DNA of 64,000 nt from a virus (IMGVR_UViG_3300036791_000400:2650-66649), one strand, 5' to 3'. Counted from the first letter of the stretch, positions 415 to 62,607 are shown. Notes: generated from the sequence alone by a model not told the origin. Program-made: numbers and translations.

Positions 415-485
415 ACTACCTCGCGCCTGACGACGCTCGACCAACTACGGTAGTAAGTCTGGCGACCGCCGCAGGCGGCGCCGAA
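415..485. repeat. Modular hairpin/palindrome repeat element, copy 1
   Basis: 415-440 matches 1120-1145 at 23/26; 466-485 is the exact reverse complement of 55529-55548; contains ACTACGGTAGT at 444-454. Confidence 0.85.
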
Positions 486-487
486 GG

Positions 488-829
488 GTGAGAGGTGAGG
501 AACCCATGTCCGAGAACGTCTCAAAACTGGTCCCGCGTATCCCCCGGGTGACCCAGGCCCAGCTCGACGCGGCGGGCGCCAACACGATCGCCGAGCTGGC
601 GCTGCACCGCGCGCTCTACCAGGTCGAGGGCGGGCACCAGTCCGAGTTCAGGTCCATCGACCGGTTCCCGGTGCTCGTCGTGGCGTGGAACCGCTGCACC
701 GAGATCGAGCGCGCCCGGTTCGTCAGGCTGCTGGGTGACACGATCGAGGAATATCTGATCGAACGTAGCGAACAGGCCCGGCGCATCGCCAAGGGCGTCA
801 GCGTCCGGCGTACCCGGCCCACGTGCTAG
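488..829 (+). CDS. Hypothetical protein (likely start ATG 506)
   Basis: ORF with GAGGTGAGG SD before MSENV; overlaps next gene. Confidence 0.7.
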   Translation: MRGEEPMSENVSKLVPRIPRVTQAQLDAAGANTIAELALHRALYQVEGGHQSEFRSIDRFPVLVVAWNRCTEIERARFVRLLGDTIEEYLIERSEQARRIAKGVSVRRTRPTC

Positions 830-1020
830 ACTGGCTGTTCAGCTGGCAGCACCGGCTCCGGCGCAGGATCGACCTGGATATCCTGTGGCCGGAGTGCAAA
901 GCCAACGCCCCGGATATCACGCTCGCCAAGGTGGCGTTCGCCATGCACGCGTTTCATGACCGGGCGTGGCTGGTGCTCGGCGAGGATGAGATCAGGCGCC
1001 AGATCGACGAGCTTAAATGA
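823..1020 (+). CDS. Hypothetical protein
   Basis: 65-aa ORF overlapping both neighbours. Confidence 0.65.
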   Translation: MLDWLFSWQHRLRRRIDLDILWPECKANAPDITLAKVAFAMHAFHDRAWLVLGEDEIRRQIDELK

Positions 1021-1112
1021 GCACGTTCTGGTTCTGGGCCGGCCTCGCCGCCATGCTGTGGATCGTCAGCGCGATCGTACTGATCGTGCTGGTCCTGAAA
1101 TCAGATAGCTAG
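1017..1112 (+). CDS. 31-aa membrane peptide
   Basis: ATGA overlap; MSTFWFWAGLAAMLWIVSAIVLIVLVLKSDS read by hand. Confidence 0.5.
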   Translation: MSTFWFWAGLAAMLWIVSAIVLIVLVLKSDS

Positions 1113-1119
1113 GACCCAT

Positions 1120-1185
1120 ACTGCCTCGCGCCTGTCGGCGCTCGATCCTTTGATGGGTTCGAGCCGCGTGATGCGGCGAGGTAGT
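1120..1185. repeat. Four-way-junction (cloverleaf) element between convergent genes
   Basis: Stems 1120-1128/1177-1185, 1129-1140, 1141-1163, 1164-1176; halves repeated at 415-440 and 55995-56017. Confidence 0.75.
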
Positions 1186-2586
1186 TTAAGTCCAGGCGGC
1201 GCTCGTGAATTTCTTCACCACGGGCTTGGGCCGCATGCGGGCCAGCACCCGTGAGGTCACGTCAGCGTTCACCGCCAGCGCCATATACTGCCCCGCGTCG
1301 GCCACGTCCGACCAGGGGTGTAATTTCTCGGGCTTATCCTCCAGCTGGCCGTCGCGCTTCTTGCGGTAGCGGTACTGGCTCGCCAACGCTCGCACCAAAG
1401 TAGGACATCCTTGTCGCGAGATTTGGATGGCGGGTTCGCCGCCCGGAAACGCTGACAGCAGCTTCTCGAACGCGAGCAGCCTGGGCGGGATATCGTTGGT
1501 CACCGCCGGGTACGCGGCGAACCCGGCACTCTTGAGTACGTCGAACGCGTTCTCCTCGGCGAGCTGGGATTTATAGGCGCCCGCCGGGTCGCCGACCACG
1601 AACGAGCGCTTGCCCAGATAGGGCTCGACGAACAGCCGGGGCTTGAGCTGCTCGTTCACGAACTGACGCAAACCCATGTCCTCGGAAGTGACCTCCTCGA
1701 ACACCAGCAGGCGCCCCAGGAAGTCCACCTGACCGATGAGCGCGCAGGGCGTGCGGCCGAAATCCATGCCGATCATGACTGGTCTATGCGGGTTGATCAC
1801 CGTGACCATGTCGCGCACATGCACATCAGGGCGGAACGAAGACCTGAATACCGCCTGGCCCGCGTTCGAGGTTCCCCACTCAGACCTGATCTGGGTGGCG
1901 ATCCGGTCCTCGGACGCGCCCGACATCGCGTTTTCGTAGTAGTTCGCGGGCAGGTTTTCCAGGTTTTCGGCGTAGGGTGAGAGCCCGCTGGGTTGCTGGA
2001 AGATTTCCCAGCCGGGCACCGGGTTCAGTATAAAATGCTCGTAGTAGGGGCTGTCCGTGGTGCCCGGGTTGCTGTCCGCGATCAGCCCGTGCCAGGTGGG
2101 TCCGCCGTTGATCTTGGATGGGTACCGCCCGATGCGCTCCATCAGGCCGGAGACCACCTCGTATTCGATCTCGCGCAGCTCGTTTAACCAAGCTCCCGTC
2201 AACTGCATAGACAGCAATCTTCGTATGTCTTCTCTGGTCTCTAAGGGTATCATGATCCAGTCCGAGTTAATTGTAGTATTATCCTCCAGGGGCGCCCTGA
2301 CCTGGATCGTGGCATCGGTCACGAAATAGCGCACCATGGGATTGAGGTACTGCTGCACGTCCGGCAATACCGTGGTGCGCAGCTGTGCCAGCGTGTTGCG
2401 TACCAGAGCAAACCGGGTATTACGCACACCATTGCTGTCAGGACGCTGCTGGCGGGCGCGGCGCAGGAGTTCCATGATCATGCCCATGGACTTGCCCGAG
2501 CCCACCGGACCGGTAATAAACCTGAACCGCGCGTCCGAGAGCATGAAGCGTTCCACCGTGGGCGGTGGCTGATAAATCAAGCTCAT
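1186..2586 (-). CDS. terL: Terminase large subunit
   Basis: Walker A GPVGSGKS, Walker B-like AWLNE, SNP motif, RNase H-like GMDFG and C-terminal SDVADA. Confidence 0.93.
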   Translation of the reverse strand: MSLIYQPPPTVERFMLSDARFRFITGPVGSGKSMGMIMELLRRARQQRPDSNGVRNTRFALVRNTLAQLRTTVLPDVQQYLNPMVRYFVTDATIQVRAPLEDNTTINSDWIMIPLETREDIRRLLSMQLTGAWLNELREIEYEVVSGLMERIGRYPSKINGGPTWHGLIADSNPGTTDSPYYEHFILNPVPGWEIFQQPSGLSPYAENLENLPANYYENAMSGASEDRIATQIRSEWGTSNAGQAVFRSSFRPDVHVRDMVTVINPHRPVMIGMDFGRTPCALIGQVDFLGRLLVFEEVTSEDMGLRQFVNEQLKPRLFVEPYLGKRSFVVGDPAGAYKSQLAEENAFDVLKSAGFAAYPAVTNDIPPRLLAFEKLLSAFPGGEPAIQISRQGCPTLVRALASQYRYRKKRDGQLEDKPEKLHPWSDVADAGQYMALAVNADVTSRVLARMRPKPVVKKFTSAAWT

Positions 2587-2891
2587 CAGGCGCGGTCGTT
2601 CGGTGGATCAAAGATCGCACCGCCGGGTGCCTGATCCCAGCTGGCGAACACCTTGTAGCTGAGCAAACCCACCGCAGCACATAACTTGGCCGCCTCCGAG
2701 GTGCCAATCTCCCAGCCGGTGTTGGTGAACCCGCCACCGTCCACGTAGGCATAGGCGAAGCCCACGACTTCGCCGCGTTCTGCACGCCCCAGTAACACCC
2801 GCAGTTCGGTTACCACGTTCTCGATGGGTGCGCCGTTGAGATCAGCCACGCGACCTAACGCATATACATTATTTTCCCGTTCCTCCTTCAT
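2586..2891 (-). CDS. Hypothetical protein
   Basis: 101-aa ORF coupled to both terminase genes. Confidence 0.7.
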   Translation of the reverse strand: MKEERENNVYALGRVADLNGAPIENVVTELRVLLGRAERGEVVGFAYAYVDGGGFTNTGWEIGTSEAAKLCAAVGLLSYKVFASWDQAPGGAIFDPPNDRA

Positions 2892-3476: not shown

Positions 3477-3522
3477 TTGCGTGTTCAGGGGGTTATACGC
3501 TAGATGTGTTCCCTACGGTAGT
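3477..3522 (+). promoter_or_regulatory. Candidate late promoter with palindromic site
   Basis: TTGCGT (3477) and TAGATG (3501) in the divergent junction, followed by CCTACGGTAGT at 3512-3522. Confidence 0.35.
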
Positions 3523-5986: not shown

Positions 5987-6009
5987 TTCACTACCGTAGG
6001 GAATATTCC

Positions 6010-8686: not shown

Positions 8687-8706
8687 TTCACTACCGTAGT
8701 GAAGCG

Positions 8707-9911: not shown

Positions 9912-12284
9912 ATGAGCGCGCAGCTATCAATCAAGCGTCCCACGCCGATGCTGCGCAGCAGCCAGCAATCCGTCGAGGTGGGCACCGAGCCCAACTGGCC
10001 GCCCGGTTATGTGCCCTCGGCGACCGAGTGGAACGCCTGGTGGGCGCTCAAACTTGACGCCAGCAATCCCGACATCCAGGGCGGTCCCTTTGTATCGCTG
10101 AACGGTGGCACCATGACGGGTGCCCTGATACTGGCGTCCGACCCGTCACAGCCTACGGGCGCGGCGACCAAACAATACGTGGACAGCAAGATCGCCGGCG
10201 GGGCGCCGGTGCTGAGCGTCGCCGGGCGCACCGGCAACGTGGTGCTGAACCACGTGGATATCGCTGACTGGGTGACGGCTACCAACGCTTTCATCAGCAC
10301 CCTGCCGCTGGCGTCCACTACCGTAGTGGGTGGTGTGAAAGTCGACGGCACCACGATCCACATCGACGGGACCGGGGTGATATCGTCGAGCGGGACTTCT
10401 GGCGTATCCAGTTTCAACACCCGTACCGGTCCGGTGGTGCTGACCTCGGGTGATGTCACCACGGCGCTGACCTTCACACCCTATAACGCGACCAACCCGA
10501 CCGGGTTCCAGACCGCCGCCCAGGTCACCACGGCGATCGCCGGCACTGCGTCCAATACGCTGCCGATCGTGGCTGGAACTGCGACTGCTGGCACCCTGGG
10601 GACGTTCGCACGTGGTGATCATGCTCACCCGGTGGACACTTCGCGCTACGCGGCCAGCAATCCGTCAGGGTTCCAGACCGCCGCGCAGGTCACTGCGACA
10701 CTCAACAGCACCTCGGTATTACTGAGTTCGGTCGGAAACGCCAACGGCGTCGCGGGCCTGGACGCGACCGGGCATGTTCCTGCGGCCCAGCTGCCGCCGA
10801 GCGGGACCCTGCCGGTTGCTTCGACCACTGTGCTGGGTGGCGTGAAGATCGACGGCACCACGGTGACGATCAATGGCTCGGGAGTGATCTCGGCGACCGG
10901 CGCCGGCGGCGGGTCTGGCTACCTTCCGCTGGGTGGCGGCGCGCTGACCGGTGCGCTGTCGATCACCAACACGGTGACGCCGCAGCTGAGCCTGATCGGG
11001 TCCGGCGCCGGTGCGGTGCTGAACCTGGCAGGCCCGGCCGGCAACCTGCGTGCCGAGCAGTATTATACCGGCACCGTCGCGACGGCCAATCTGCGCTGGA
11101 CGATCGGCGCCGATACCGGCGCCGAGAGCGGTTCCAACAACGGCTCGTCGTTCATACTCGCTGCGTACACCGACGGCGGCGCCCCACTCGCCACGGTGCT
11201 GAGTGCCAACCGCAACGCCCTTGCCGTCACGATGGGTTGGCAGCTGATCCTGCCGGGCAACCCGACTTCGGCACTCGGTGCGGCGCCTCGGCAATACGTG
11301 GTGCCGCTGGCCGGTGGCACGATGACCGGGATACTCACGCTGAGCGGCAACCCGGTGGGTAATCTGGACGCCGCCACCAAACAGTACGTGGACGGTAAGA
11401 CCTATCCCTATGTGGCGCTGGCGGGTAGCACCATGACTGGTGCGCTCGTCCTTAATGCTGATCCCGCCGTGGCCTTAGGGGCAGCGACCAAGCAATACGT
11501 TGACAACGCGATCAGCGGTGCCGGCACGGGGGTGTTCCTGTTGCTGAGCGGCGGCACGCTGACCGGCGCGCTCACTCTCAACGCTGACCCGACGCTCGCG
11601 CTGCACGCGGCGACCAAGCGCTATGTGGATAACAAGACCTATCCGTATCTCCTGCTCATCGGCGGCACGCTGACCGGGGACTTAGTACTGTTTCGTGATC
11701 CTTCGCTGGCACTTGGTGCGGCCACCAAGCAGTACGTGGACGCCAAGGTAGGCAGCATCAACGCGGTGCTGATCACCGGCAGCACGATGACCGGTGCGCT
11801 GACGCTCGCGAGCGATCCGGGAGCACCCTTGCAGGCAACGACCAAGCAATACACCGACCGGCTGCGGGTGGGCACCCCGACCAATGACAACGCCGCAGCT
11901 GGCATGATCGGTGAGTTCCTGAGCGCCTCGTTTACCGCGATAACGCTTACCACCGCCACAGTCACGAACATCGGCACGCTGACGCTGACCGCCGGTGACT
12001 GGGATGTCGAAGGCAACGTCCAGTTCATCATTACCGGGAACGGCACCGGCGGGCTGAACAGCTGGGTGTCGCAGACTTCGACGACGCTGCCGGCTACACC
12101 GGCCGGTTTCGCATCGATGGTGATTGATGGGACCCGAGGCAGCATAACCGGCTCGGCGATGCCGACCGGCGCGCTGCGGGTGTCATTGGCGGCGTCGGCG
12201 ATAATTTATCTGGAAACGCAAGCGTACTTCAACGCTGGCACGGTCAGTGCCGGAGGCTACCTACGGGCGCGACGCGCGCGGTAA
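9912..12284 (+). CDS. Tail fibre protein 1
   Basis: About seven G(G/S)T(M/L)TG.L.L..DP...L.AATKQYVD repeats; Thr/Gly-rich. Confidence 0.85.
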   Translation: MSAQLSIKRPTPMLRSSQQSVEVGTEPNWPPGYVPSATEWNAWWALKLDASNPDIQGGPFVSLNGGTMTGALILASDPSQPTGAATKQYVDSKIAGGAPVLSVAGRTGNVVLNHVDIADWVTATNAFISTLPLASTTVVGGVKVDGTTIHIDGTGVISSSGTSGVSSFNTRTGPVVLTSGDVTTALTFTPYNATNPTGFQTAAQVTTAIAGTASNTLPIVAGTATAGTLGTFARGDHAHPVDTSRYAASNPSGFQTAAQVTATLNSTSVLLSSVGNANGVAGLDATGHVPAAQLPPSGTLPVASTTVLGGVKIDGTTVTINGSGVISATGAGGGSGYLPLGGGALTGALSITNTVTPQLSLIGSGAGAVLNLAGPAGNLRAEQYYTGTVATANLRWTIGADTGAESGSNNGSSFILAAYTDGGAPLATVLSANRNALAVTMGWQLILPGNPTSALGAAPRQYVVPLAGGTMTGILTLSGNPVGNLDAATKQYVDGKTYPYVALAGSTMTGALVLNADPAVALGAATKQYVDNAISGAGTGVFLLLSGGTLTGALTLNADPTLALHAATKRYVDNKTYPYLLLIGGTLTGDLVLFRDPSLALGAATKQYVDAKVGSINAVLITGSTMTGALTLASDPGAPLQATTKQYTDRLRVGTPTNDNAAAGMIGEFLSASFTAITLTTATVTNIGTLTLTAGDWDVEGNVQFIITGNGTGGLNSWVSQTSTTLPATPAGFASMVIDGTRGSITGSAMPTGALRVSLAASAIIYLETQAYFNAGTVSAGGYLRARRAR

Positions 12285-12298
12285 CAGAGGAGATTACT

Positions 12299-12532
12299 AT
12301 GCACAACCCGACCGACATGCTGAGCATCAACCTGCAAGCGCAGGAATGGAACGTGGTGCTGGCGGCGCTGATGGAGGCGCCGTATCGGATATCCAACCCG
12401 CTGATTGAGAAGATCACCGGCCAGGCACGCGAACTGGCGAGTGAAGCATCTACTACCGTAGTGACGCCGCCGTCACGGTCCAACGGTAGCGGGCGGCTGC
12501 ACGAGATCATCGACGAGCTGCCTCGCCGATGA
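12299..12532 (+). CDS. Small protein, possible fibre assembly factor
   Basis: GAGGAG SD; follows fibre gene. Confidence 0.65.
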   Translation: MHNPTDMLSINLQAQEWNVVLAALMEAPYRISNPLIEKITGQARELASEASTTVVTPPSRSNGSGRLHEIIDELPRR

Positions 12533-15983: not shown

Positions 15984-15987
15984 GGGG

Positions 15988-49777: not shown

Positions 49778-50313
49778 GCAGCTTTCCCTCGTTTTGCCCC
49801 GACAACATGCAGTTTGTGACCCGCAATACCGGCATTGCGTGCCGCGATCCGACGGATACGGGTGCTGGTAGTTTCCTTCTTCTTGTAGGTGGGGTCGGCC
49901 GCCTGGAGAGCAGCAACCTCAGCACGCCGGTTGGCCACTCTGGCCGCGACCTTGGCCTTCTGCGCGTCTGTCTTCTGGTTATACGCAGGTTCGTTGTCGA
50001 TAAGTTTGAGCCGAAGGCGATGTGATTTTCCCTCCGGTAGTGTCAGCGTGCCGTCGTCATTCAACTCCTGGAGCGTGAGCGCAGTACGAGGTATCGCGTA
50101 GTGATGCACCCGGCCCTTCCAGGTGATGGTCACGACGTTGACATTGACCTTGAGCCAGGTCGGATCAGGGTCCTTGATGGTGCGGCGGATGCAGTTCGCA
50201 ATCACGCATCTGGTAGGCGAGCCGCAGACCGCATCCAGCGTGTCAACGCGGATCAGCAGCAAATCAAGTATCGCCGGCAGTGTGTTCAGTCTGACCTTAT
50301 GCTGTTTTGCCAT
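49774..50313 (-). CDS. Hypothetical protein
   Basis: GGAGTAGTGAGC SD before MAKQHK; C...P.RC.IA. Confidence 0.65.
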   Translation of the reverse strand: MAKQHKVRLNTLPAILDLLLIRVDTLDAVCGSPTRCVIANCIRRTIKDPDPTWLKVNVNVVTITWKGRVHHYAIPRTALTLQELNDDGTLTLPEGKSHRLRLKLIDNEPAYNQKTDAQKAKVAARVANRRAEVAALQAADPTYKKKETTSTRIRRIAARNAGIAGHKLHVVGAKRGKAA

Positions 50314-50324: not shown

Positions 50325-52250
50325 CTACTGGTTCAGTCCCTGTTCGGCCTCCAAGAGTGTGTTCCCCCAACCTCCCTCGCTGGCCAAGGGCAGGCCCGTG
50401 GCCCAGTCGGACGGGGTCGCGAACTCGCGCGTGAGCATCTGATCGAAGCTCTCGGCCTCGGCCTCAGGCACACAATACTCGTGGCTATCATAAGTCGACA
50501 TGAACGGATGGTATTTCGTGCGCTTGTGCACGCGCAACATGATATCGGTGACCACGATGCGCGCCAGTGCCTGGCACATGTTCTCGATCACCTTGCACCC
50601 GTAGATTTTCTTCAGCCCGTAGGGACCCTCATAGTATACGTCGTTGCCCAGACCGAGCCGGCGGCCGATGCCGGGATACTGGAGCGCCATCCCGTTGGGC
50701 AGCCACAGGGCTTCGTCGCCCTCGCGCACCACCGGCAACCTGGGCGGCAGCGGCTTTTTCCGCTCACCCAGCGGCTTCCTGGGCTCGTGGTCCGGTTCGC
50801 CGGCGGCGCGCAGGATCATTCGTTCGATCGCCGCGTCGGCGCGGCGCCACAGCCTGGACACCTCGGGATATTCACTCCGGTAGAGATCGACCAGCGTCTT
50901 CGAGCGCGTCTCGTCCAGCGTGACCGATACCCCGCCCTGGCCGATGAACAGCACGGTCTGGAACTTGGCGGCACCACAGCCGTAGCCCAGGCCCAGCACG
51001 CTGGTCTTGCCCACGAACCGCTCCAGGGCATTCGCCTTGGAGACAGGGTAGCCATAAAATTGCGTGGCGAACTCGGAGTACACGTCGCGGCCCTGCTCGA
51101 ACGCCTCCAGCAGCTTGGTACATCCAGCCAGCCACGCCAGCATCCGGCACTCGATCTGCGAGCTGTCCCGGTGCACCAGGCGGTACCCAGGCGGTGCGGT
51201 GATCGCATCCCGGATGGGCGCGCCGCGCCGCAGGTTCGCGAAGTTGAACCCGCCGTCACCGGAAAATCTTCCGGTGTGTGCGCCGTAGTAGCGGTAGGGC
51301 ACGGGCATCCAGCCGGTGGCCTGGGCCGATCCCCATTCCCGGAGTGACAGGCTCAGGAGCGTCTCGGTCCGGCTCTCGTCGATGGTGGACTTGACCCCCT
51401 TGCGGCATGCCAGGAGCGCCTGGACCTCTTGTGTCTGGGTATCATCCTCGCATAGCTCTTTGAAATCGCGGTCGTTGCGTGCCAGCGCCGGGATCGTCTC
51501 ACCCGTTGTGGGTGATACTTTGGTGGGAACTTCCACACCATGTTGTTCCAGTAAGGCTGCGAATTTCTGATTGGAACTGAACACGCTTTTGTCCAAATGT
51601 GCGAACTGCGCCAGCGCCTGCGCTTTGAGCGCGCGCACATGGTGTAATTGTTCTGCCAGCTTGTTCGCGTCCAGCCTGACCTGCGGCGCGATGAACATAC
51701 GCAGCGCCAGGTCGATCACCCTTAGCTCGGATCGCGGGAAACCCGCGATCATAAGTCGGTCAAAGATGTCCCGGCATAGGTCGGTATCATGAGCACAGTA
51801 GTCGCTGTAGATAGCCAGTTCGTCGAGGGTGAAGTGTTCGAGGCGCTTGCCCTTGGCGTGTATCACGGCGTCGCCCTTGGGACGCAGTTCGAAGAACTGC
51901 GCGACCGCCTTGAGTGCGGACGAACCCACCACAGCATGCGTGGTAGCTCTGGCCATTGAGACTGTATCGAGATACAGCTTGGGCGTGTGACCATAGCGCC
52001 ACGCCAGGATCGCGCCGTCAAACCTGGTATTGTGCGACAGTAGTGCCACGTTATCCCAGGGCACGCGCGCCAGGGCGTCACGCACACACGCCTCGCCCAC
52101 GGACACCTGCGTGGGCTCATTATCGCGCTTGATGCTCACCATGATGGTCTGAAACAAGGGCGAGAGAATGTACTCGACCTCGGACATTTTCGTCAGCGAG
52201 TAGTTCTGATCGTAGTACGTTTCAAAGTCCAGCGTGACTATCATGCTCAC
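50325..52250 (-). CDS. polA: DNA polymerase, family A, with 3'-5' exonuclease
   Basis: LDFETY exo I, HN..FD, HTGRFSG, motif A DSSQIECR, motif B GKTSVLGLGYG. Confidence 0.93.
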   Translation of the reverse strand: MSMIVTLDFETYYDQNYSLTKMSEVEYILSPLFQTIMVSIKRDNEPTQVSVGEACVRDALARVPWDNVALLSHNTRFDGAILAWRYGHTPKLYLDTVSMARATTHAVVGSSALKAVAQFFELRPKGDAVIHAKGKRLEHFTLDELAIYSDYCAHDTDLCRDIFDRLMIAGFPRSELRVIDLALRMFIAPQVRLDANKLAEQLHHVRALKAQALAQFAHLDKSVFSSNQKFAALLEQHGVEVPTKVSPTTGETIPALARNDRDFKELCEDDTQTQEVQALLACRKGVKSTIDESRTETLLSLSLREWGSAQATGWMPVPYRYYGAHTGRFSGDGGFNFANLRRGAPIRDAITAPPGYRLVHRDSSQIECRMLAWLAGCTKLLEAFEQGRDVYSEFATQFYGYPVSKANALERFVGKTSVLGLGYGCGAAKFQTVLFIGQGGVSVTLDETRSKTLVDLYRSEYPEVSRLWRRADAAIERMILRAAGEPDHEPRKPLGERKKPLPPRLPVVREGDEALWLPNGMALQYPGIGRRLGLGNDVYYEGPYGLKKIYGCKVIENMCQALARIVVTDIMLRVHKRTKYHPFMSTYDSHEYCVPEAEAESFDQMLTREFATPSDWATGLPLASEGGWGNTLLEAEQGLNQ

Positions 52251-52283: not shown

Positions 52284-53096
52284 TCAGTCCAGGTTTAAGT
52301 CGCCCTGGAGATGCTCCCAGGCATCACACGTCGCGCGGATTTCACGCTCGGGATGCTTGTATTCGTCCAGTACCGTACCCGCCGTGAGCACGATGTCGGC
52401 GACCTTGATTAACTTACCCCAGCGTTCGATGGTCTCTGGTGTGGGTTGATAGGCTTTGAGGGACCGTGTGGGATTGCGAAACCGGTCGCGCCACATGGTG
52501 TCGTTCGCCCACGTGCCTCTCTTGTGGTCGTATCTCTGCCCCATGCTTTCGGTCAGCGTGGTAAGCATGGGCCACAGCGCCAACAGGTGCGAGCTGGTCT
52601 TCACCAACTTCTCGCTGTTCATGATCTTCGCCGAAGCATGAACCGTGATCTCGACCATGCGCTTCTGCTGGATCACGCGAGTAATCCACTGGATCAAATC
52701 CCGGCGTTCCGCGTCGCTCAGTCCACTCAGATCGGGCACCAGATAGTGATCCTCGTTGGGATCGAAGTTCGTGGTGCGCATGCCGTACTGGGTGGCACGA
52801 TCCACGAATATCTGCTCCGGCAGCACCAGGCTGATTACCACACCCCTGCGCAGACCCGGAACCTTTTCACGCAGGAACGCCAGCCGCACCTGGCTATGTC
52901 TGGCGATTGTTCTGATACCCTTGGCGGACAGATCGCGCATCGTTGCCAGTTGGTCCGCCGGCAGCACCGCGTTCTGGATTTGCTCGACGGTCATCGGGAA
53001 GTCGGCCAGCGCGTAGCTCAGCGTGCGCATAGCCAGTTGGTTGGCGCGGCCACGCAGGTGATCGCGGATCGAACCAGACAGATGGTAATTTGGCAC
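52284..53096 (-). CDS. Hypothetical protein
   Basis: 270-aa ORF; GGAGTGAGC SD, GTG start. Confidence 0.8.
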   Translation of the reverse strand: MPNYHLSGSIRDHLRGRANQLAMRTLSYALADFPMTVEQIQNAVLPADQLATMRDLSAKGIRTIARHSQVRLAFLREKVPGLRRGVVISLVLPEQIFVDRATQYGMRTTNFDPNEDHYLVPDLSGLSDAERRDLIQWITRVIQQKRMVEITVHASAKIMNSEKLVKTSSHLLALWPMLTTLTESMGQRYDHKRGTWANDTMWRDRFRNPTRSLKAYQPTPETIERWGKLIKVADIVLTAGTVLDEYKHPEREIRATCDAWEHLQGDLNLD

Positions 53097-53120
53097 GGTT
53101 TGCTCACTCCGGTAGTTGGG

Positions 53121-53283: not shown

Positions 53284-53559
53284 TCAGGGCGCCTGGAGGC
53301 AGAGCCAGGCGATCGCGTGTTCAGTCAGCCACCACTCCTCGGGCACGCGCACGCGTTTCGGCGAGCCGCGATCATTCGTTATGAACGCGACCTCGATGTC
53401 CTTCCAGTATGCACGCTTGTAGGCCCACGCTACCTTGGATCGCAGTCCTTCGGGCAACGCGTGTATCAGCTCGTCTTCGAGCGCGCAGTTGCGATCCAGG
53501 TCGTGGTTGTATGCCTGGGCGTTGATGTGATCCACCACGTCCTCCAGTTCGTGTCCCAT
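53284..53559 (-). CDS. Hypothetical protein
   Basis: MGHELEDV start coupled to the VWA gene stop. Confidence 0.6.
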   Translation of the reverse strand: MGHELEDVVDHINAQAYNHDLDRNCALEDELIHALPEGLRSKVAWAYKRAYWKDIEVAFITNDRGSPKRVRVPEEWWLTEHAIAWLCLQAP

Positions 53560-54938
53560 CACTCCACCTTGATGCGAACGACCTCGCCCCACGGTGCGTC
53601 CACGTCCGTGGTCGCGGCCCAGATCACCGGATACGCGGGCGCAGCGTCGGGGAAGCTGCCGTACATGTCGGTCAGATAGACCAGGCACTCGGGTTTGAGA
53701 TTATGTTCATCCACGTGGTCAAACACCGGCCGGAAGTCGGTACCGCCGCCGCCCATCACGCCCTTGGCACGCAGACCCTCGAACTCGTCCAGCGAGGCCA
53801 CCTCATCCACCTGGGTCACCCGCATGTCGCAACCGATCACGGTGATCTGCCTGGGCTTGCAGTCGTTCAGTATCCCGCCCACTTCGGCCAGGAACGTATC
53901 CAGCTCCCTTGCTCCGATCGACCCTGACGTGTCGATGCCAACGACGACCAATTCGCAGCCATAGCCCCGCCGGCCAGGCGCGATGACAAGGGGGTTCAGC
54001 GCGAGCCGGCGCCGGTTGGGCCGGGTCCAGGTCTCGCCACGCGAGCCGATCTTGCCGGTCATCAGGAGCCGGATGTGATCGCGCCAGTCGACCTGCGGGT
54101 CGAGAATGCTCTCGGCCAGCCGCTGGACCGAGCCGGGACAGTTGCCCATGGCCTTGGCGGCACCCAGCGCGCGCGCCACGGCTTCCTTGAACTCGTTGGC
54201 GTCGGGCAGGTCCACGGCGCCCGTGGCAGGGTCGACCGGGGGAGGCAGTATCTCGTCGAACGTGCCCCCTTTGCCGCGCGCCGTGGGATCACCCCTGGCG
54301 CCCCTGGGCGCCTTGCCCGTTGATCCGGCTGTCGGTAACCCTTGCGGCGGCGCCCCTTGCTGCGGCCCCTGCGGGGCACCCTGGGCGGGTTGGTTACTAC
54401 CGGAGGGAGGTTGACCCCCCTGGCCACCAGAGCTGCCCTGGCCCTGCCCCTGGCCCTGGCCGGGGGGTGGCTTCTGATACAGCCGCTCATAGATATCCTC
54501 CCAGAGTTCCGTGCCCTTGATCCGGGGATCAAACAGCCAGTCCGGGTTGATCGCGCCGACGCCGGTCTCGACCAGATCGGCGTTGATCACGAAGTCCTCG
54601 CAGACGTTGGCGAACATGGACGAGTAGGGCAGGCCACGGATATCCCCCTCGCGGGTGTAGTAGGCGCCGCGCTGGCAGTGCCCGTTCACGATGTGGGACA
54701 TCTCGTGGGCGAACACGAACACCTGCTCCTGGGTCTTCAGCGAACAGAAATACTCGGGGTTAATAAATATGTGCCGCCCATCGGTTGCGGCCGAGGGCAC
54801 GTCCCTTGTGGGCACCTCCTTGGCGATCGAGTAGAACAGGTGGGAGTAGAAGGGTGTGGCGATCATGAACGCGACGCGCGCGGTCTGGACCTGACGCTCT
54901 TGTTCGGGTGATAGCTTGGCGCGGGTAAACATGCTCAC
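53559..54938 (-). CDS. DUF2201-type metallopeptidase plus VWA domain protein
   Basis: AATDG...NPEYF, HEMSH, D..IN; MIDAS DTSGS, GGGGTDF, YLTD. Confidence 0.9.
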   Translation of the reverse strand: MSMFTRAKLSPEQERQVQTARVAFMIATPFYSHLFYSIAKEVPTRDVPSAATDGRHIFINPEYFCSLKTQEQVFVFAHEMSHIVNGHCQRGAYYTREGDIRGLPYSSMFANVCEDFVINADLVETGVGAINPDWLFDPRIKGTELWEDIYERLYQKPPPGQGQGQGQGSSGGQGGQPPSGSNQPAQGAPQGPQQGAPPQGLPTAGSTGKAPRGARGDPTARGKGGTFDEILPPPVDPATGAVDLPDANEFKEAVARALGAAKAMGNCPGSVQRLAESILDPQVDWRDHIRLLMTGKIGSRGETWTRPNRRRLALNPLVIAPGRRGYGCELVVVGIDTSGSIGARELDTFLAEVGGILNDCKPRQITVIGCDMRVTQVDEVASLDEFEGLRAKGVMGGGGTDFRPVFDHVDEHNLKPECLVYLTDMYGSFPDAAPAYPVIWAATTDVDAPWGEVVRIKVE

Positions 54939-54958
54939 TCCGGTAGTTGGGTCAGGAT

Positions 54959-55510: not shown

Positions 55511-55528
55511 CTGCTCACTCTCTCATAT

Positions 55529-55576
55529 TTCGGCGCCGCCTGCGGCGGACGCGATTGACTACGGTAGTCAGTCAAG
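55529..55576 (-). repeat. Modular repeat element copy 2 (left inverted repeat)
   Basis: Inverted match to 56013-56060 and to 436-485. Confidence 0.8.
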
Positions 55577-55994: not shown

Positions 55995-56060
55995 CCTCGC
56001 CGCATCGCGCGGCTCGACTGACTACGGTAGTATGGTGGCGTCCGGCTGCGCCGGCGCCGA
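55995..56060 (+). repeat. Modular repeat element copy 3 (right inverted repeat)
   Basis: 55995-56017 matches the reverse complement of 1159-1181 at 22/23; same architecture as 419-484. Confidence 0.82.
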
Positions 56061-56071: not shown

Positions 56072-56299
56072 TCACTCGGTATGCTCCTTTGGGTTGGGTA
56101 AGCGTAGCGGTGGTGGTACGCCCAGCTCGTGCAGCCGCGACGTGGCCACGCTCAGTCGGGCGCAGTGGGGTACCAGGTCCCAGTTGCACTCGATCGCCAG
56201 TATGAGTGACCTCGCCGCGTTGATAGCTTCAGCGCGCAGCGTGCGTTCATGCAGTCTGCGCGCTGCCGCGCGCTGGTCTTCGTCCATCACAATCCCCAC
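56072..56299 (-). CDS. Hypothetical protein
   Basis: ORF coupled to upstream gene. Confidence 0.55.
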   Translation of the reverse strand: MGIVMDEDQRAAARRLHERTLRAEAINAARSLILAIECNWDLVPHCARLSVATSRLHELGVPPPLRLPNPKEHTE

Positions 56300-57204
56300 T
56301 GGTTCAGCTTGTCGGTGATCGTGCGTGCCTGGGACACAACATCGGCACGGACGCGAGCGTCCGTGCGAAGGTCCTTCGCATCCACGCCGTCCAGCATGGC
56401 TTTGATGTCGGTTACTACGGTAGCGATCCGTGGGTCGCCAGCGCAGTTGAACCCGGGCAAGAGCCCGATCAGATCGCGCACCCCCTCAATCGTGCCCGCT
56501 TTGAAGCGGGCATCAGGGTCAGACAGCCGCTGGATCATGGGCTCGATGGCATGGCGCACGCGTTCCCACATCTCAGCCTGCGCGATCTGCGCGGCGGCCT
56601 CCTGCTTCTTCAGGAGCCCGGCCGACAACTTCTCGATGAACGCCTCGGGCAGGTTGGCAAAGGCGCTGGCGGCGGGGATCGGCGCGAAGTCGAAGCTTAG
56701 CCTGAAGGCGCGCCTGACTTCATCGGGTGTCGGGTAATCATCCGCGTTGGCGAGGCCCGCGAGATTGGCCTGGGCCTGGATCATCAGGTCCGGGTAATCA
56801 TGCACGAACTTGTCGCGCTCGGTGAGCGCGAGTGCGCGAAGTTTCCCCATCTCCTTCATGTAGCGCTCGAACAACATCGTGGGCAGGAGCCTGGGTCCGG
56901 TCTGGCGTTCGGCGTGGGGGTTGCTCACCCACGGTAGTGTGAGAGAGTAATGCGCCGCACGTGCTGCGGTGTAGGCAGCACGCGTGGCCTTGAGCTGTGT
57001 GTCACACCCAGACAGCAGGTTCTTGATCGCGCGGCCCACGTTACCCACAGCATTGTGCTGCGCTTTGGCTTCGTCCATGATCTTCCGATCCGTCCTCTCT
57101 GCGCCCCACATGCTGATCGAGAGATCAGCCAGTAGTGCGGTGCTACGCACAGCGTCGGCCAGGTCGGTCTGTGTCACGTTCATATCCATAGTCGTGTCCC
57201 TCAT
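56287..57204 (-). CDS. Helical phage protein accompanying the AAA+ gene (DUF3150-like)
   Basis: LSIS.W...R.D, TLPW....GPRLLP, DYP...EV...F motifs. Confidence 0.7.
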   Translation of the reverse strand: MRDTTMDMNVTQTDLADAVRSTALLADLSISMWGAERTDRKIMDEAKAQHNAVGNVGRAIKNLLSGCDTQLKATRAAYTAARAAHYSLTLPWVSNPHAERQTGPRLLPTMLFERYMKEMGKLRALALTERDKFVHDYPDLMIQAQANLAGLANADDYPTPDEVRRAFRLSFDFAPIPAASAFANLPEAFIEKLSAGLLKKQEAAAQIAQAEMWERVRHAIEPMIQRLSDPDARFKAGTIEGVRDLIGLLPGFNCAGDPRIATVVTDIKAMLDGVDAKDLRTDARVRADVVSQARTITDKLNQWGL

Positions 57205-57278
57205 TGTTCTCTACGGTAGTGGAGGATAGCATAGGCTATCCCACACTGTCACGCTTGATACCACGTCTGATCGCGCGG

Positions 57279-58445
57279 CTAGCCGCGCGATGCCTTCAGG
57301 ATTTCCTGGTTCTTGAGCAACCAGTCCACGAACTGCTTGCTGTTCGCGACCGCCTTGGCCTTCTCCTGCTGGTTGGTGATCGTGCGCACCGCGAGCACCT
57401 GCATCTCGACGTTCATTCTGGTGATGTATTTAAGTACGTTGTCTGCGTTCTTGCCAGTGACATTGTGCGCCAGCATGAAGGCACATACCATCTGTGCATC
57501 ACGCTGTTCAGGCAGCTTGGCGGTGGTGGGATTGCGCTCGATATCCGCCATATCAGGAAGCTGGTCTGCATAGCGCAGATGCACGAAGTACTGTGCGCTC
57601 TCACCACCACCGATCCACCCGGCGCATACCTCACGTGCCACTTGGTCAGTGGGCAGACGGCCGGCGAGCACGTCATCATTCGTTCTGAGCGCCTGTAGGT
57701 CGCGGTCCATCATGACCAGCGTCCTGGGCGTGCAAAAGGGATCATCGCCCGGTGGCACGGTGTCACGGAACACCAGATCGGGCTGGCGGTTGGCGAAGCT
57801 GATGGTGAGATGGTGCGGCCGATCGCCCTCCGGTAGTAAGTTCACCCAGTGGTTCCACGCTGGCAGCGACGGGTCCACGCGCAGGAGCATGCGCCGGTTG
57901 GTGATGAACGTGAGCGAGCGTAATACACCGGCGCGATCACTCATGCGGTTGGACGCGGCGATCACGCGCCATCCATCTGGAAGTCTGTCGTCTCCTACTT
58001 CACCATGAAGCAGCAGCTCCGCTGCGGCTTTCTTGGTGTCGTCCTCGGCCTGGCCGAACTCATCCAAAAAACAAACCCCTACCTTCGGTATGGGTTGATC
58101 CCATTCTCCTTTGCGCTTCACACTACCGTCGGGAAGAAAGACGGTGGTGTTTAAGATCACCGGGTACCAGGGAGGTGTACTAAACACCGTGCCCGGCTTC
58201 GGTATGGCTTTGGTGGGTAACATAAATCCACGCACGTCGACGGACTGGAGCGTGGCGAGCATGTGCACGCCCAACCCCACGGGCGCGCTTATTTCGCGCG
58301 CAAGCGCGGCGCAGTATTCTTGAACGACAGAGGATTTGCCCACCCCTGGCGGGCTCTCCAGGGCGATCGCGTTGGCGCGGTTTGGTTTACCCAGGCTCGC
58401 GACGTGCGTCCTGAGCATAACCTGCATTGCGGCTTGTAGGTCCAT
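57279..58445 (-). CDS. MoxR-like AAA+ ATPase
   Basis: SPPGVGKS, DVRG, FLDEF, AASNR..DRAG, NR, TPR. Confidence 0.9.
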   Translation of the reverse strand: MDLQAAMQVMLRTHVASLGKPNRANAIALESPPGVGKSSVVQEYCAALAREISAPVGLGVHMLATLQSVDVRGFMLPTKAIPKPGTVFSTPPWYPVILNTTVFLPDGSVKRKGEWDQPIPKVGVCFLDEFGQAEDDTKKAAAELLLHGEVGDDRLPDGWRVIAASNRMSDRAGVLRSLTFITNRRMLLRVDPSLPAWNHWVNLLPEGDRPHHLTISFANRQPDLVFRDTVPPGDDPFCTPRTLVMMDRDLQALRTNDDVLAGRLPTDQVAREVCAGWIGGGESAQYFVHLRYADQLPDMADIERNPTTAKLPEQRDAQMVCAFMLAHNVTGKNADNVLKYITRMNVEMQVLAVRTITNQQEKAKAVANSKQFVDWLLKNQEILKASRG

Positions 58446-58451: not shown

Positions 58452-58655
58452 TCACTCCTGCTCAGTTATGTCCTTATACTCGGCGTCGCCGTGCCGGTCC
58501 CACCAGCCCAGGCCCACGTCAGGCTCGAACTCCAGGTCATAGTCCTCCTGCTCCAGCTTCTCGATCGCGGCCTCGTACGTGTCAGCCTCGATCTCGGTCG
58601 TCGCGATGATGTCGATGGTGGCGCGGTCGCGCACTTCGATGATGAACTTAGGCAT
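58452..58655 (-). CDS. Small acidic protein
   Basis: GGAGTGAG SD inside palindrome variant. Confidence 0.7.
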   Translation of the reverse strand: MPKFIIEVRDRATIDIIATTEIEADTYEAAIEKLEQEDYDLEFEPDVGLGWWDRHGDAEYKDITEQE

Positions 58656-58685
58656 GTGATCTCACTCCGGTAGTTGGTTTGGTAA

Positions 58686-60143: not shown

Positions 60144-60320
60144 TCAGGCGCGACGGTTGAACATGAAGGCTTCGAACGTGTCCAGGATCACGTCAGGATC
60201 ATCGTCGAAGCCGGGCACGAACGGGTCGAAGCTGTCGTCCAGGTCTGAACAAGACTGGAACTCATCGTCCATATCGAGCCCAGGCAACACGCGAGACACG
60301 AGATAGCACACATCAGACAT
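60144..60320 (-). CDS. Very acidic small protein
   Basis: MSDVCYL start after GGAG SD; Asp/Phe-rich. Confidence 0.55.
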   Translation of the reverse strand: MSDVCYLVSRVLPGLDMDDEFQSCSDLDDSFDPFVPGFDDDPDVILDTFEAFMFNRRA

Positions 60321-60355
60321 AGTGTTGTTTACTCCGGTAGTAGTGGTGGGTGGTT

Positions 60356-60628
60356 TCAGATAAAGTGCAACAGCGTGGCAACGGAGATTGCGACCGCGCC
60401 CAGCAGGATCACGGCACACCAGGCATCGCGGCCCACGCGCCAGACTGGCGCATGTAGTGGCGTGATTGTGGGTGTAATGCGCGCTTTCTGCCACGCCGCG
60501 TACTTGGCTTCCTGCTGGCGACGCCAGGCCGCGTCATATGGATCACTGTATGCCACGATAGGCTTTTCCTTTCTACGGTAGTGGTAGGCTAACACAAATC
60601 CACTAACAATCACAGTGGACACACTCAT
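60356..60628 (-). CDS. Small protein with C-terminal TM segment (start probably GTG 60556)
   Basis: AAAGGA SD; hydrophobic C-terminus. Confidence 0.5.
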   Translation of the reverse strand: MSVSTVIVSGFVLAYHYRRKEKPIVAYSDPYDAAWRRQQEAKYAAWQKARITPTITPLHAPVWRVGRDAWCAVILLGAVAISVATLLHFI

Positions 60629-60688: not shown

Positions 60689-61017
60689 GTCCTAGTGTAG
60701 ATACATGTCCTAGTAAGTGTCCTAGTCCGCGTCCTAGTCAAGCTGTTGTAATCGTTGGACAAACTTACTCGGATACCACATGGACTTGTAGAATGTTCGG
60801 AACATGAGGGAGACGCTCTAGGACGTTAGTTGACACAATGTGCCGTTTTTCACTAACGGCGAGAGAGCCTCGCGGAAGAGACCTCAATCTCCAATTCTAC
60901 AAGTCCAAGTGAAAGTTTAGTTAAGTAAAGTAAGTAAGATCAATAGGTTGACTAGGACGCGCACTAGGACATCCACTAGGACACCACTGGGACAGGGGCG
61001 GTCGCTCGCGTCCTAGT
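60689..61017. repeat. Mirror-symmetric GTCCTAGT iteron-like array, candidate replication origin
   Basis: GTCCTAGT at 60689, 60707, 60719, 60731, 61010; ACTAGGAC at 60951, 60963, 60975; inner IR 60781-60794/60894-60907. Confidence 0.8.
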
Positions 61018-61050
61018 GTGGCGCGCCTCTCACGCACAGTATTGGTAGGT

Positions 61051-61323: not shown

Positions 61324-61388
61324 TATAGTTACTCCGGGAGTATCTACGATTGAGGTTACAGACGATTGTAGATACTGCCGGAGAAACT

Positions 61389-61430
61389 ATAACCCGCGCG
61401 ATGCAACGTGCACCGCGCGGGTTATGTTTT
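61389..61430. terminator. Long hairpin, terminator-like
   Basis: ATAACCCGCGCG...CGCGCGGGTTAT followed by GTTTT. Confidence 0.5.
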
Positions 61431-62015
61431 ATGGGTTATGGGTTGCTGCGCTCTTTTACTCATCATCACGATCAACATGCGGTGGCGCAGGCTGTATAAC
61501 GCGCTAAGCGTTATCGCATCCCGCCGGTACCGTGCTTCGGCGCGTGGATTATCTCATATCTCTTTCGTGCCTATCGTGCGACTGCCGATTTTCTGTCTAT
61601 TCCGCTATCGACTGCGGGACTGCCTAGGTGCGTGATTGTAAGTCACGCGATACGTGCTAGGGCCTTTATGACACGGTAGGCCATCGGCTAACTTACTCCC
61701 TAAGGCACCTGTAGGCGCACGCGCTAGGCGCACCGTCCGTCTTGGCCGTCGGTTTCAGCTTCGCGAGCGGGAAGCCATCCGATTTGTAGGCGGTAGCGAC
61801 ATCCCTGACATACCAGGGGGCTTTCCCACATGGTTGGCGGCGGAGATTGCCACGACGGTAGTGAGGGCATGGGGGGTGGGGGCGGACCTGGACAGGACCC
61901 GGGGGGCCGGCGCCCGGTGCTAGGTCTTACCCCCACAAGACTATCTGATTTTTAGCCTTCATAGTTTCCTATACTATTATGGTGGATTTTATATCCTTCA
62001 TGGTTTGGGCACTAC

Positions 62016-62048
62016 TGTGAAAAATTATATCACCCCAAATTATCCACA
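62016..62048. promoter_or_regulatory. Two DnaA-box matches in an AT-rich tract
   Basis: TTATCCACA at 62040-62048; TGTGAAAAA (reverse TTTTTCACA) at 62016-62024. Confidence 0.4.
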
Positions 62049-62091
62049 CACTATCTCCCAATACTGTGTGTGAATTATCCGTGATCCCAGG

Positions 62092-62125
62092 TTGACAACC
62101 CTCGTAGTTCTGCCCATTTATATTC
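62092..62125 (+). promoter_or_regulatory. Candidate sigma70 promoter
   Basis: TTGACA at 62092-62097 followed by AT-rich CATTTATATT. Confidence 0.4.
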
Positions 62126-62154
62126 ACATCAGTAACTGTTCCGGAGTGAATACT

Positions 62155-62607
62155 ATGGCTCGCAATGTTCTCGCCTCGCCCCACGCGCGGCAGCGCGTGG
62201 GAAATATGGGCATGGGTCGCGACCCCGAGACCTGGCCGCCGGTGCCCGAGCCACCCGCGTATGTGGTTGTGGCCATCGAGGAATGGTTGCGCGCGAAGCG
62301 TAATTCCCGCCGGCCCTTGACCGTGGCCGCACCCTTGCTGGCCATCTTTTGCATGCTCCACGAGCGCAAGCATCCTGTGCCCACACGGGCGCGGCTCGCG
62401 AGTGCCTTGGGCACGAGCGAGGATACCGTGGACGCAGCTCGTTCGACAGCTTTGGGTGCCGGGGAGATAAAGGAAATCCAGGAAACTTATGCGGGTCAGG
62501 TTGCGCGTCGGTTTTCGATCCGCCGGCGGCGCTTTGTCATACCCAGTCGTGAGCTGTTCGATCTCTACCGTAGTGAGGTTCAGCTACGCCGAGCGAAGCG
62601 AGCGTAG
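62155..62607 (+). CDS. Putative winged helix-turn-helix DNA-binding protein
   Basis: PTRARLASALGTSEDTVDAARSTALGAGEI fits an HTH; GGAG SD before ATG 62155. Confidence 0.6.
   Translation: MARNVLASPHARQRVGNMGMGRDPETWPPVPEPPAYVVVAIEEWLRAKRNSRRPLTVAAPLLAIFCMLHERKHPVPTRARLASALGTSEDTVDAARSTALGAGEIKEIQETYAGQVARRFSIRRRRFVIPSRELFDLYRSEVQLRRAKRA

Follow-up and report, generated by a model that had tools for sequence, protein, structure and literature searches.

The 64,000-nt stretch of DNA analyzed here in full (the window, bases 2650-66649 of the single 66,649-bp contig IMGVR_UViG_3300036791_000400) comes from what is apparently a lytic soil podophage, and it carries throughout its length a short palindromic repeat with the core CTACSGTAG, where S denotes C or G (and W, below, A or T) at the dyad center. 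Coordinates are those of the window unless given otherwise, and the phage genome under study is referred to as G000. The DNA was found in two soil-metagenome DNA runs, and no RNA data set is listed as containing it. Pfam and PHROGs were applied to about 60 proteins, including every called open reading frame (ORF) of at least 180 aa, and revealed a podovirus-like structural arm (large terminase, portal, capsid, several tail fibers, and an internal virion protein), in which a 2404-aa protein carries an LPD39 domain. The leftward replication arm encodes a DUF927 primase-helicase, an SNF2-type helicase, an exonuclease, a PolA-type polymerase, a DUF2201/VWA protein, and an AAA ATPase. The searches detected neither an integrase, a repressor, an RNA polymerase, or a methylase nor any tRNA in G000, although divergent small proteins may be missed in this way. 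Intergenic space in the genome is almost nil.

The repeat is real and strongly nonrandom. Its core occurs 18 times in the window, compared to 0.23 expected copies and a maximum of 2 in 100 dinucleotide shuffles, and the total is still 18 for the complete 66,649-bp contig. When one mismatch to the core is permitted, 43 matches are found versus 7.1 expected, and in an unbiased k-mer scan of the 66.6-kb genome the repeat family ranks top at k = 9, 10, and 11. An earlier examination of the DNA alone (the sequence-only reading) had listed these 18 positions, every one of which is an exact match, and its estimate of less than one chance copy agrees with the shuffles. It had further described an 11-bp palindrome at about 30 sites. 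The number is close to the 33 matches of the loose form, CTMCSGKAG, in the window (18 perfect cores, the one-arm variants, and one double-arm variant), but the full 11-mer ACTACSGTAGT is present at only 7 of the 18 core sites, the other 11 having just the 9-bp core. Similarly, the 13 variants with CTCC/GGAG arms that it reported are all in place, but in 12 of them only one arm is changed, and two further one-arm variants (50875 and 54397) had been missed. The form with both arms changed, CTCCSGGAG, occurs once, at 61332, which is the chance level, and the membership of this site in the set is therefore doubtful. The symmetric extensions quoted in the sequence-only reading are both present (TTCACTACCGTAGTGAA at 8687 and TGACTACGGTAGTCA at 55556), and its statement that roughly half of the copies lie in coding sequence holds for our own gene calls (11 of the 18 cores and 19 of all 33 sites). 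It had named a codon-preserving null as a check in advance, and the enrichment survives it: the core is found 11 times within called coding sequence, compared to a mean of 0.51 and a maximum of 3 in 200 synonymous shuffles and to 0.20 in codon-order shuffles, and the loose form is found 20 times, compared to 2.3 in synonymous-codon shuffles.

A symmetrized matrix of the 33 sites holds information from −7 to +7 and reads TYACTMC-S-GKAGTRA, a 15-bp odd palindrome with more A+T than the genome. TAG and TGA are present in the arms and close one reading frame per strand, so that an upstream gene is able to terminate within the site; intragenic copies encode T-T-V-V, T-P-V-V, or Y-R/G-S, matching the peptides described earlier. 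On the sense strand of G000, the center base is C at 12 perfect cores and G at 6 (P = 0.24), which amounts to no preference, and the one-arm variants split 10:4 by strand (P = 0.18), with GGAG antisense in 4 of 14. The identity of the center is nonetheless a property of the genome: perfect-arm sites have 18 S and no W centers in G000, versus 17 W and 4 S in a relative, G002. A center that is unoriented and yet genome specific is exactly as expected for a two-fold symmetric binder on duplex DNA. We also found that the half-sites vary independently of each other. Among left-arm variants at ±2, a complementary right arm is present in just 1 of 11, and at ±5, ±6, and ±7 covariation is at the permutation level. 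When four perfect-core sites were folded as RNA, three gave −4.7 to −6.7 kcal/mol and the one at 5991 gave −2.2 kcal/mol; the start-associated GGAG variants gave 0 and −0.7 kcal/mol, i.e., no fold. In the dyad of the cultured relative RHph_TM3_14A (below), sense-strand G-U and A-C mismatches are equally common (24:25), and Rfam at gathering thresholds gave no match across the window. An RNA hairpin that sequesters the ribosome-binding site (RBS) was rejected on these grounds (no compensatory changes, GGAG variants at 0 to −0.7 kcal/mol, and no Rfam match). Together, the lack of covariation, the lack of a fold, and the unoriented center favor a phage dimer on duplex DNA over an RNA or single-stranded DNA hairpin; the arms are not under selection for hairpin pairing.

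The repeat is also nearly restricted to phage contigs in the bacterial assemblies and bins searched. Both of two Bradyrhizobium assemblies (8.7 and 7.9 Mb, 16.6 Mb in total), each of which contains a related phage-size contig, lack ACTACNGTAGT altogether, whereas the reversed control occurs 27 and 17 times; a motif equally common in unrelated genomes, which the sequence-only reading had named as a refutation, is thus not what was found. In one metagenome bin (G008), all five copies of ACTACNGTAGT are on the phage contig, and in another (G010), five of eight are. For a second dyad type, TTACC-N6-GGTAA, the copies on the phage contig number 36 of 36 in G009 and 5 of 6 in G006, and in G007, all 9 are on the phage contig and contig C166. 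These phage-host comparisons were made on the assemblies of relatives. With so few copies outside phage contigs, the motif is unlikely to belong to a host regulon, and its reader is more likely carried by the phage.

Many relatives were found in IMG/VR and genome collections, and they carry the repeat in lineage-specific versions. The DNA-level search of the phage collection gave a single 98-bp match, to Nocardia phage NTR1, while its distant mode gave no match. Among cultured phages, Rhizobium phage RHph_TM3_14A (MN988472.1) is the closest, with a capsid protein that is 59.5% identical and replication genes in the same order. As a side observation, the “putative integrase” annotated in that phage (42239-45322) aligns with the DUF927 primase-helicase of the window. 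Four complete relatives (type 1) share the dyad of G000. G002 has ACTAC-type arms with an A/T center in 17 of its 21 perfect-arm sites (8 A and 9 T in the sense orientation), and G008 has 18 copies of CTAC-N-GTAG, 13 with S and 5 with W centers, the S sites being 6 C and 7 G in the sense orientation. G001 and G003 have A/T-rich flanks, TTTAMTMC-S-GKAKTAAA; in G001, 47 sites are found at up to three mismatches versus 0 to 1 in shuffles, and its small early genes (ca. 54.6 to 62.6 kb) have sense TTTAATACGGGAGTGAA a few nucleotides ahead of the ATG. Two fragments, L005 and L038, have five dyad copies apiece, and additional 20-kb fragments yielded more candidate dyads. RHph_TM3_14A, G009, and G006 form a sister (type 2) clade with a TTACC-type dyad and no ACTAC dyad. 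In RHph_TM3_14A this reads GTTACCT-N3/4-AGGTAAC, with about 65 sites versus 7 to 12 in shuffles, many of them finishing 1 to 8 nt ahead of an ATG; TTACC-N6-GGTAA is found 36 times in G009 (compared to 5 sites with N5 spacing, and with variable spacer sequences) and 5 times in G006.

Positions are kept in part from one version to another. In the genes for the helicase, the polymerase, and the 2404-aa and 153-aa proteins, each genome has its own version of the dyad at aligned codons. The place after the capsid gene is occupied by a dyad in G000, G001, G002 (degenerate), and RHph_TM3_14A (where it is of the other type), and one lies upstream of the 300-aa gene in G000, G002, and G008. Among start-associated sites, the relative also had a dyad in 5 of 21 gene-by-relative comparisons, so that conservation is far from complete. 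The literature that we searched, which excluded supplementary files, gave no description of the motif or of the RHph_TM dyad, and motif strings retrieved only primers. As to the lifestyle of these relatives, two of the family contigs are in Bradyrhizobium isolate assemblies (L030, G006:C42, 60.6 kb; L036, G007:C111, 61.0 kb), and a Pseudolabrys bin contains a 465-kb contig with two copies of the capsid gene 62 kb apart. Such arrangements may mean that some members persist in a carrier state, exist as plasmid-like prophages, or integrate.

Within G000, the sites are strongly linked to gene junctions. Gene models were produced by our own heuristic caller, and their boundaries are approximate. 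A called start lies 5 to 60 nt downstream of 13 of the 33 sites, compared to 6.7% of genome positions (a ca. 6-fold enrichment); 19 sites are near a gene boundary and 14 are deep within genes. Fourteen are not wholly within called coding sequence, in a genome that is 6% noncoding. Twelve of the 71 same-strand junctions contain a site, and the median gap in these is 56 nt, versus 0 nt in site-free junctions. The sites are densest in the early/replication arm, and their spacing is not significantly regular (coefficient of variation, 0.80 versus 0.96 for random placement; P = 0.14).

Five of the junctions are tight and have, on the sense strand, the sequence CTAC-S-GGAG with TGAG or TAAA after it. 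These are at 46058-46066 (sense CTACGGGAGTGAGCATG, ahead of the gene at 45825-46052), 53107-53115 (a 24-nt junction with sense CTACCGGAGTGAGC, ahead of the 270-aa gene at 52284-53096), 54938-54946 (a 26-nt junction with sense CTACCGGAGTGAGCATG, ahead of the gene at 53559-54932), 58665-58673 (a 30-nt junction, ahead of the gene at 58452-58655), and 60332-60340 (a 35-nt junction, ahead of the gene at 60144-60320). The distance from core to called start is 5 nt for sites 46058 and 54938 and ranges from 9 to 11 nt for 53107, 58665, and 60332, which makes the changed arm the Shine-Dalgarno (SD) sequence of the next gene. Of 80 called genes, 10 are preceded by the preferred RBS of the phage, GGAGTGA; the left arm of the dyad accompanies it at 4 of these and is missing at 6. 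Neither the junction link, nor the use of the GGAG arm as SD, nor the family-wide lineage versions had been part of the sequence-only reading.

Perfect cores occupy other junctions. That at 445-453 (CTACGGTAG) is intergenic, 52 nt before a start at 506, and is followed by a GC hairpin and an SD sequence. The same arrangement recurs on the sense strand at the intergenic sites 55559-55567 (within TGACTACGGTAGTCA) and 56022-56030. The core at 3513-3521 is in the divergent region between a TerS-like gene (−) and the portal gene (+), and that at 5991-5999 fills a 23-nt junction (stop codon TAG, 4 nt, site, 10 nt, and ATG at 6010). The core at 8691-8699, within the 17-bp palindrome TTCACTACCGTAGTGAA, lies between the capsid gene stop and a terminator-like hairpin; that at 57211-57219 is upstream of the 300-aa gene, 3 nt past a sigma-70-like match (GTGACA-18-TATCCT); and that at 60573-60581 is at the called start of 60356-60595 (−). 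The double-arm variant at 61332-61340 (CTCCGGGAG) is in a long noncoding stretch, where TATAAT follows on the minus strand.

The remaining sites are within called coding sequences. Perfect cores are found 22 nt inside the called start of 16570-16806 (16592-16600, with an ATG 8 nt past the site), 28 nt inside that of 41051-41209 (−) (41173-41181), and 50 nt inside that of 47789-48118 (−) (48060-48068). Toward gene ends, they occur at 12453-12461 (79 nt from the end of the small coding sequence 12299-12532), at 27007-27015 (36 nt before the end of 26582-27043), and at 62565-62573 (42 nt before the end of the winged-helix gene 62155-62607, with a hairpin following); a one-arm variant at 28945-28953 (CTCCGGTAG) is 31 nt before the end of 28311-28976. 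Site 27007 has an aligned dyad in G001 (with a variant left arm, AATAC) and in G003, and that of G002 is shifted by an insertion and has its own center base. Further cores are at 10318-10326 (tail fiber gene 9912-12284, peptide TTVV), 18890-18898 (17236-19137), 47341-47349 (helicase gene, peptide LYGS, with a dyad at the same codons in G001 and not in G002 or G003), and 56415-56423 (300-aa gene, peptide TVV, with a degenerate copy aligned in G001). The other one-arm variants are at 30794-30802 (CTACGGGAG, within 29707-32733), 35618-35626 and 38528-38536 (both within the 2404-aa gene, the former aligned with CTACAGTAG in G002 and the latter reading CTACCGGAG), 44373-44381 (within 44254-45378, −), 50032-50040 (within 49774-50313, −), 50875-50883 (DNA polymerase gene, aligned with CTACCGTAG in G002), 54397-54405 (DUF2201/VWA gene, aligned with CTCCGGTAG in G003), and 57828-57836 (AAA ATPase gene).

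How might such a repeat be used? From its enrichment, anatomy, and placement, we infer that a protein binds it, that the phage encodes this protein, and that binding affects transcription. We consider the chances about even that the repeat has an operator-like role and is recognized in double-stranded DNA by a phage-encoded protein acting as a dimer. In such a scheme, the dimer would dock on TYACTMC-S-GKAGTRA in duplex DNA and serve as a genome-wide regulator of phage gene expression, the site perhaps acting as an operator or a roadblock by which transcription units are silenced or timed, in the manner of stoperators or the Cluster O dyads (below). The site would fit the scarce intergenic space by letting the upstream gene end in the TAG or TGA of an arm, and in tight junctions the single change from GTAG to GGAG would let the arm double as the SD sequence of the next gene. 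The sequence-only reading had likewise proposed a dimeric binder, and this part remains the best reading of the dyad extending to ±7, the unoriented center, the independent halves, and the phage restriction; its suggestion that the binder coats the whole genome goes beyond this evidence. Of the three models it offered, a parS/matS-like organization of the genome lacks support, given that no ParB or MatP match was found in the proteins tested, that the spacing is not significantly regular, and that the sites are 6-fold enriched upstream of starts. A stoperator-like system is the nearest of the three, although membership in that class fails for reasons given below.

Several observations weigh against a dimeric DNA-binding protein. 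The in-coding-sequence counts close to gene starts are soft, because the gene calls are heuristic. In all five intergenic one-arm variants, GGAG is on the sense strand just before the called start, and the right arm, GTAGTGA, is one base off the preferred RBS. Moreover, the 3′ half is better conserved in the sense orientation, with A at +7 in 30 of 33 sites compared to T at −7 in 18 of 33, so that the tie to translation starts is closer than a pure DNA operator requires. The half-site spacing differs between the two dyad types (N1 versus N6), which would be unusual within one homologous dimer family. Finally, as detailed below, Pfam and PHROGs found no helix-turn-helix (HTH), ribbon-helix-helix, ParB, repressor, or integrase protein among the approximately 60 tested, the winged-helix candidate is missing from G001 and G003, and the models of two clade-specific core proteins (300 and 270 aa) have no fold match in PDB.

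Some of these observations lead to the main rival, a start-associated translation signal on the mRNA resembling the start-associated sequences (SAS) of Cluster K, in which the element is an extended RBS or the site of an RNA-binding regulator and its palindromy is secondary. We regard this as unlikely. It would account for the 13 sites located 5 to 60 nt upstream of called starts, for the five junctions where the GGAG arm is the SD sequence, for the resemblance of the right arm to the RBS of 10 of the 80 genes, and for the better-conserved 3′ half, and it has parallels in the early small genes of G001 and in the RHph_TM3_14A dyads that end just before ATG. However, 18 of the 33 sites have GTAG in both arms and no SD sequence, and the 14 sites deep in genes are on either strand and enriched over codon shuffles. 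The center base shows no sense-strand preference, GGAG is antisense in 4 of the 14 one-arm variants, there is no selection for pairing, and the variants are unfolded. The left arm, for which an mRNA signal has no role, is as invariant as the right arm. Junctions as short as 23 to 35 nt have to accommodate both a stop codon and an SD sequence, which can explain the leftover orientation signal; that signal also keeps a translational role as the main rival to a DNA-binding dimer.

It is improbable, in our view, that the repeat is instead a phage-specific transcription signal, whether a promoter to which a phage factor redirects the host RNA polymerase or a mark at transcript ends for processing or termination. 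The sites at 445, 55559, and 56022, followed by a GC hairpin, an SD sequence, and a start, would suit such a role, as would the A+T richness of the element, the site between the divergent TerS-like and portal genes (3513), and the one between the capsid gene stop and the terminator-like hairpin (8691), the place of which is conserved in G001, G002 (degenerate), and RHph_TM3_14A. A palindrome, though, would fire bidirectionally within one-directional operons, sites 5 to 10 nt before an ATG leave no room for an SD-containing transcript, and deep coding-sequence sites are conserved across genomes. There is no consistent −35/−10 partner; one sigma-70-like match lies next to a site (57211), the count from the scan for such promoters equals the level of shuffles (3 versus 3.9), and neither an RNA polymerase nor a sigma factor was found in the proteins tested. 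The more specific notion of a virion RNA polymerase with N4-like hairpin promoters was rejected, the 2404-aa and 1008-aa proteins giving it no support. We also dropped a possible likeness of the left flank to type I-F CRISPR repeats and to CsrA or anti-SD sequences, since the dyad centers do not coincide.

The sites sometimes belong to longer repeated cassettes. The dyad, GC hairpin, and SD sequence at 445-505 are repeated at 55511-55567, and 1159-1181 is repeated at 55995-56017; these cassettes, with 88% and 96% complementary arms, front unrelated genes in the sense orientation on opposite arms of the genome. Another longer shared cassette around sites is family D18. Along with the expanded site-bearing junctions (median, 56 versus 0 nt) and the finding that, of the 17 genes in G000 that have a dyad close to their start, 9 lack an orthologue in four relatives, they might suggest a junction or cassette sequence for recombination and gene shuffling, or a tiny mobile palindrome, with no trans-acting regulator. 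This we find quite improbable. Aligned codons in conserved genes carry sites with genome-specific center bases, enrichment within coding sequence is about 20-fold over codon shuffles, and the S-versus-W specificity between genomes implies a reader. In addition, no transposase or RAYT-like gene was found, the association with orphan genes seems not to be significant by a rough estimate, and few repeats are reported at indel borders in the Cluster O analogue (PMC4351075). The third model of the sequence-only reading, in which the sites mark programmed nicks or modified bases in virion DNA as in T5- or phiKMV-like phages, is highly improbable, its sole support being that a specific, phage-restricted motif exists, since cutting or modification of a palindrome would affect both strands, the G000 proteins tested include no recognizable nickase or methyltransferase, and the targets of such enzymes are not normally about 90-fold enriched or placed at gene junctions.

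If a phage protein reads the repeat, which one might it be? None of the ca. 60 proteins tested could be linked to the site, and PDB sequence searches with six proteins gave nothing meaningful. The sequence-only reading had put forward the protein encoded at 62155-62607 as an HTH binder. Its 150-aa product does resemble winged-helix (HTH_36/MarR-like) proteins (ESM features, 0.96), but it is detectable in only two of the four complete type 1 relatives (G002 and G008) and is for that reason a weak candidate. Its gene has, by eye, a strong sigma-70-like promoter upstream (TTGACA, 17 nt, TATATT; 62092-62157), and a right half-site of the dyad, standing alone, serves as its RBS (CCGGAGTGA). The real target of this protein may be another repeat, GTCCTAGT, the second most enriched 8-mer family, with eight copies over both strands. 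These iterons cluster at 60699-60740 and 60951-61020, in a ca. 1.5-kb region that separates the early genes from the winged-helix gene and in which few genes, if any, are called with confidence; four direct copies face at least three inverted ones (ACTAGGAC) and one further direct copy near 61011 across an A+T-rich stretch of ca. 190 bp (60890-60945). The cluster looks like a replication origin or an operator cluster of the winged-helix protein.

Other candidates come from the distribution of proteins among the relatives. Early proteins of 270, 293, and 300 aa and a 194-aa protein at the TerS position are, among others, present in all four complete type 1 relatives and not in the type 2 clade. 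AlphaFold models of the 300-aa and 270-aa proteins are confident (predicted local distance difference test scores of 90 and 87, respectively). The 300-aa protein (56287-57189, −) has 101 metagenomic relatives and no Pfam domain, and it is absent from the type 2 clade. Its model matches uncharacterized or DUF3150-labeled viral proteins (template modeling [TM] scores of 0.78 to 0.86 for DUF3150), and the Pfam DUF3150 model had no match in the five genomes or records searched. A match of the model to a protein of Cluster O phage Dylan is weak (TM score, 0.33) and is only a lead. For the 293-aa protein, the ESM features (0.85) were uninformative.

Palindromic operators present in a dozen or more copies per replicon and serving one global regulator have precedents. 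The conserved inverted repeats (CIRs) of the phiC31 repressor and the KorB operators of plasmid RK2 (TTTAGCSGCTAAA) are of this kind; the KorB site is of odd length with a central S, and KorB is a ParB-family protein. The palindromic operator tetO also invites comparison. Unlike the CIR and KorB systems, which belong to a temperate phage and a plasmid and have known binders, the present repeat comes with no detected homologue of these. The closest described feature, by analogy, seems to be the 17-bp dyad of Cluster O mycobacteriophages. According to its description (PMC4351075), TGTTCGG-N3-CCGAACA occurs at 34 sites (14 intergenic, 10 near 5′ ends, and 10 inside ORFs), is unoriented and denser in the nonstructural arm of a phage that is not obviously temperate, and is of unknown function, with a dimeric DNA binder predicted by the authors. 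On that description, the two repeats share their number (more than 30 copies), their inter- and intragenic locations, and their lack of orientation, and the likeness would be one of functional class rather than homology. They differ in sequence and in host phylum (a Rhizobium-phage-related podophage versus siphoviral mycobacteriophages), in their spacer (1 bp versus 3), and in that the arms here are not invariant and the one-arm GGAG version doubles as an SD sequence. Unlike the Cluster O repeat, the present one is also family-wide, with at least two specificity types. To our knowledge, the Cluster O repeats are still unexplained.

The stoperators of Cluster A are likewise short sites found in tens of copies genome-wide and mainly in short intergenic gaps, as are the 33 sites here. 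As reported (PMC9283540, PMC4351075), however, stoperators are asymmetric (13 to 14 bp), oriented with transcription, and bound by the monomeric immunity repressor of a temperate phage, and the stoperator-bound protein affects transcription beyond initiation. These properties exclude from the class a 15-bp unoriented dyad in a genome where no immunity repressor or integrase was found. For the SAS of Cluster K and their extended forms (ESAS), the report on them (PMC3203893) describes a 13-bp conserved element with an SD core, an upstream stop codon often within it, a subcluster-specific consensus, and an unknown function; it is asymmetric, in one orientation, and confined to gene starts, 3 to 7 nt before the start codons of nonstructural genes. 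On that account, only the one-arm subset, with its SD sequence close before a start, resembles SAS, unlike the 18 sites without an SD sequence and the 14 deep in genes.

A few other features of the genome deserve mention. Two phage proteins (L048:1446-2117 and L048:2114-2971 in genome coordinates, the latter extending into window positions 1-322) end in PEP-CTERM motifs (Pfam E = 5e-7 and 1e-5, respectively). Such sorting motifs suggest a Gram-negative host with an exosortase system. The tail fiber genes (10087-21256) contain repeats of 38 to 81 nt that include GCGACCAAGCAATACGTGGAC, in families with 8 to 12 members each, a sign of repeated domains that may have been exchanged among four or five fiber genes. 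Lastly, an ORF at 62801-63415 has tandem proline/glycine-rich repeats (62933-63192) spaced ca. 90 to 110 nt apart and no family match, and its low coding score leaves its coding status uncertain.

One possibility, less likely than not, goes beyond a dimeric operator-binding protein as such: these soil podophages may possess a new kind of global regulator, a dimer that is possibly the 270-, 293-, or 300-aa clade protein, together with a triple-coded operator and coevolved specificities of site and reader. A single 15-bp palindrome would then be at once a protein site, a source of stop codons for the upstream gene, and, with one base changed, an SD sequence. Site and reader would have coevolved into the ACTAC-N1-GTAGT and TTACC-N6-GGTAA types while genomic positions were kept, and in lytic phages without classical repressors the system would both punctuate and time the expression of almost all transcription or translation units.

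A genome-wide dyad repeat is now seen in an unrelated and apparently abundant phage lineage of Gram-negative soil bacteria, members of which turn up in many metagenome bins and, as contigs of ca. 60 kb, in assemblies of Bradyrhizobium isolates. Natural specificity swaps are present in this lineage, both in the center (S versus W) and in the two arm types at the same genomic positions. Since RHph_TM3_14A is in culture, the function of the repeat can be tested experimentally. Should the regulator be found, it would constitute a new operator/regulator pair from lytic phages and an instance of compact overlapping codes, in which operator, stop codons, and ribosome-binding site are contained in one sequence.

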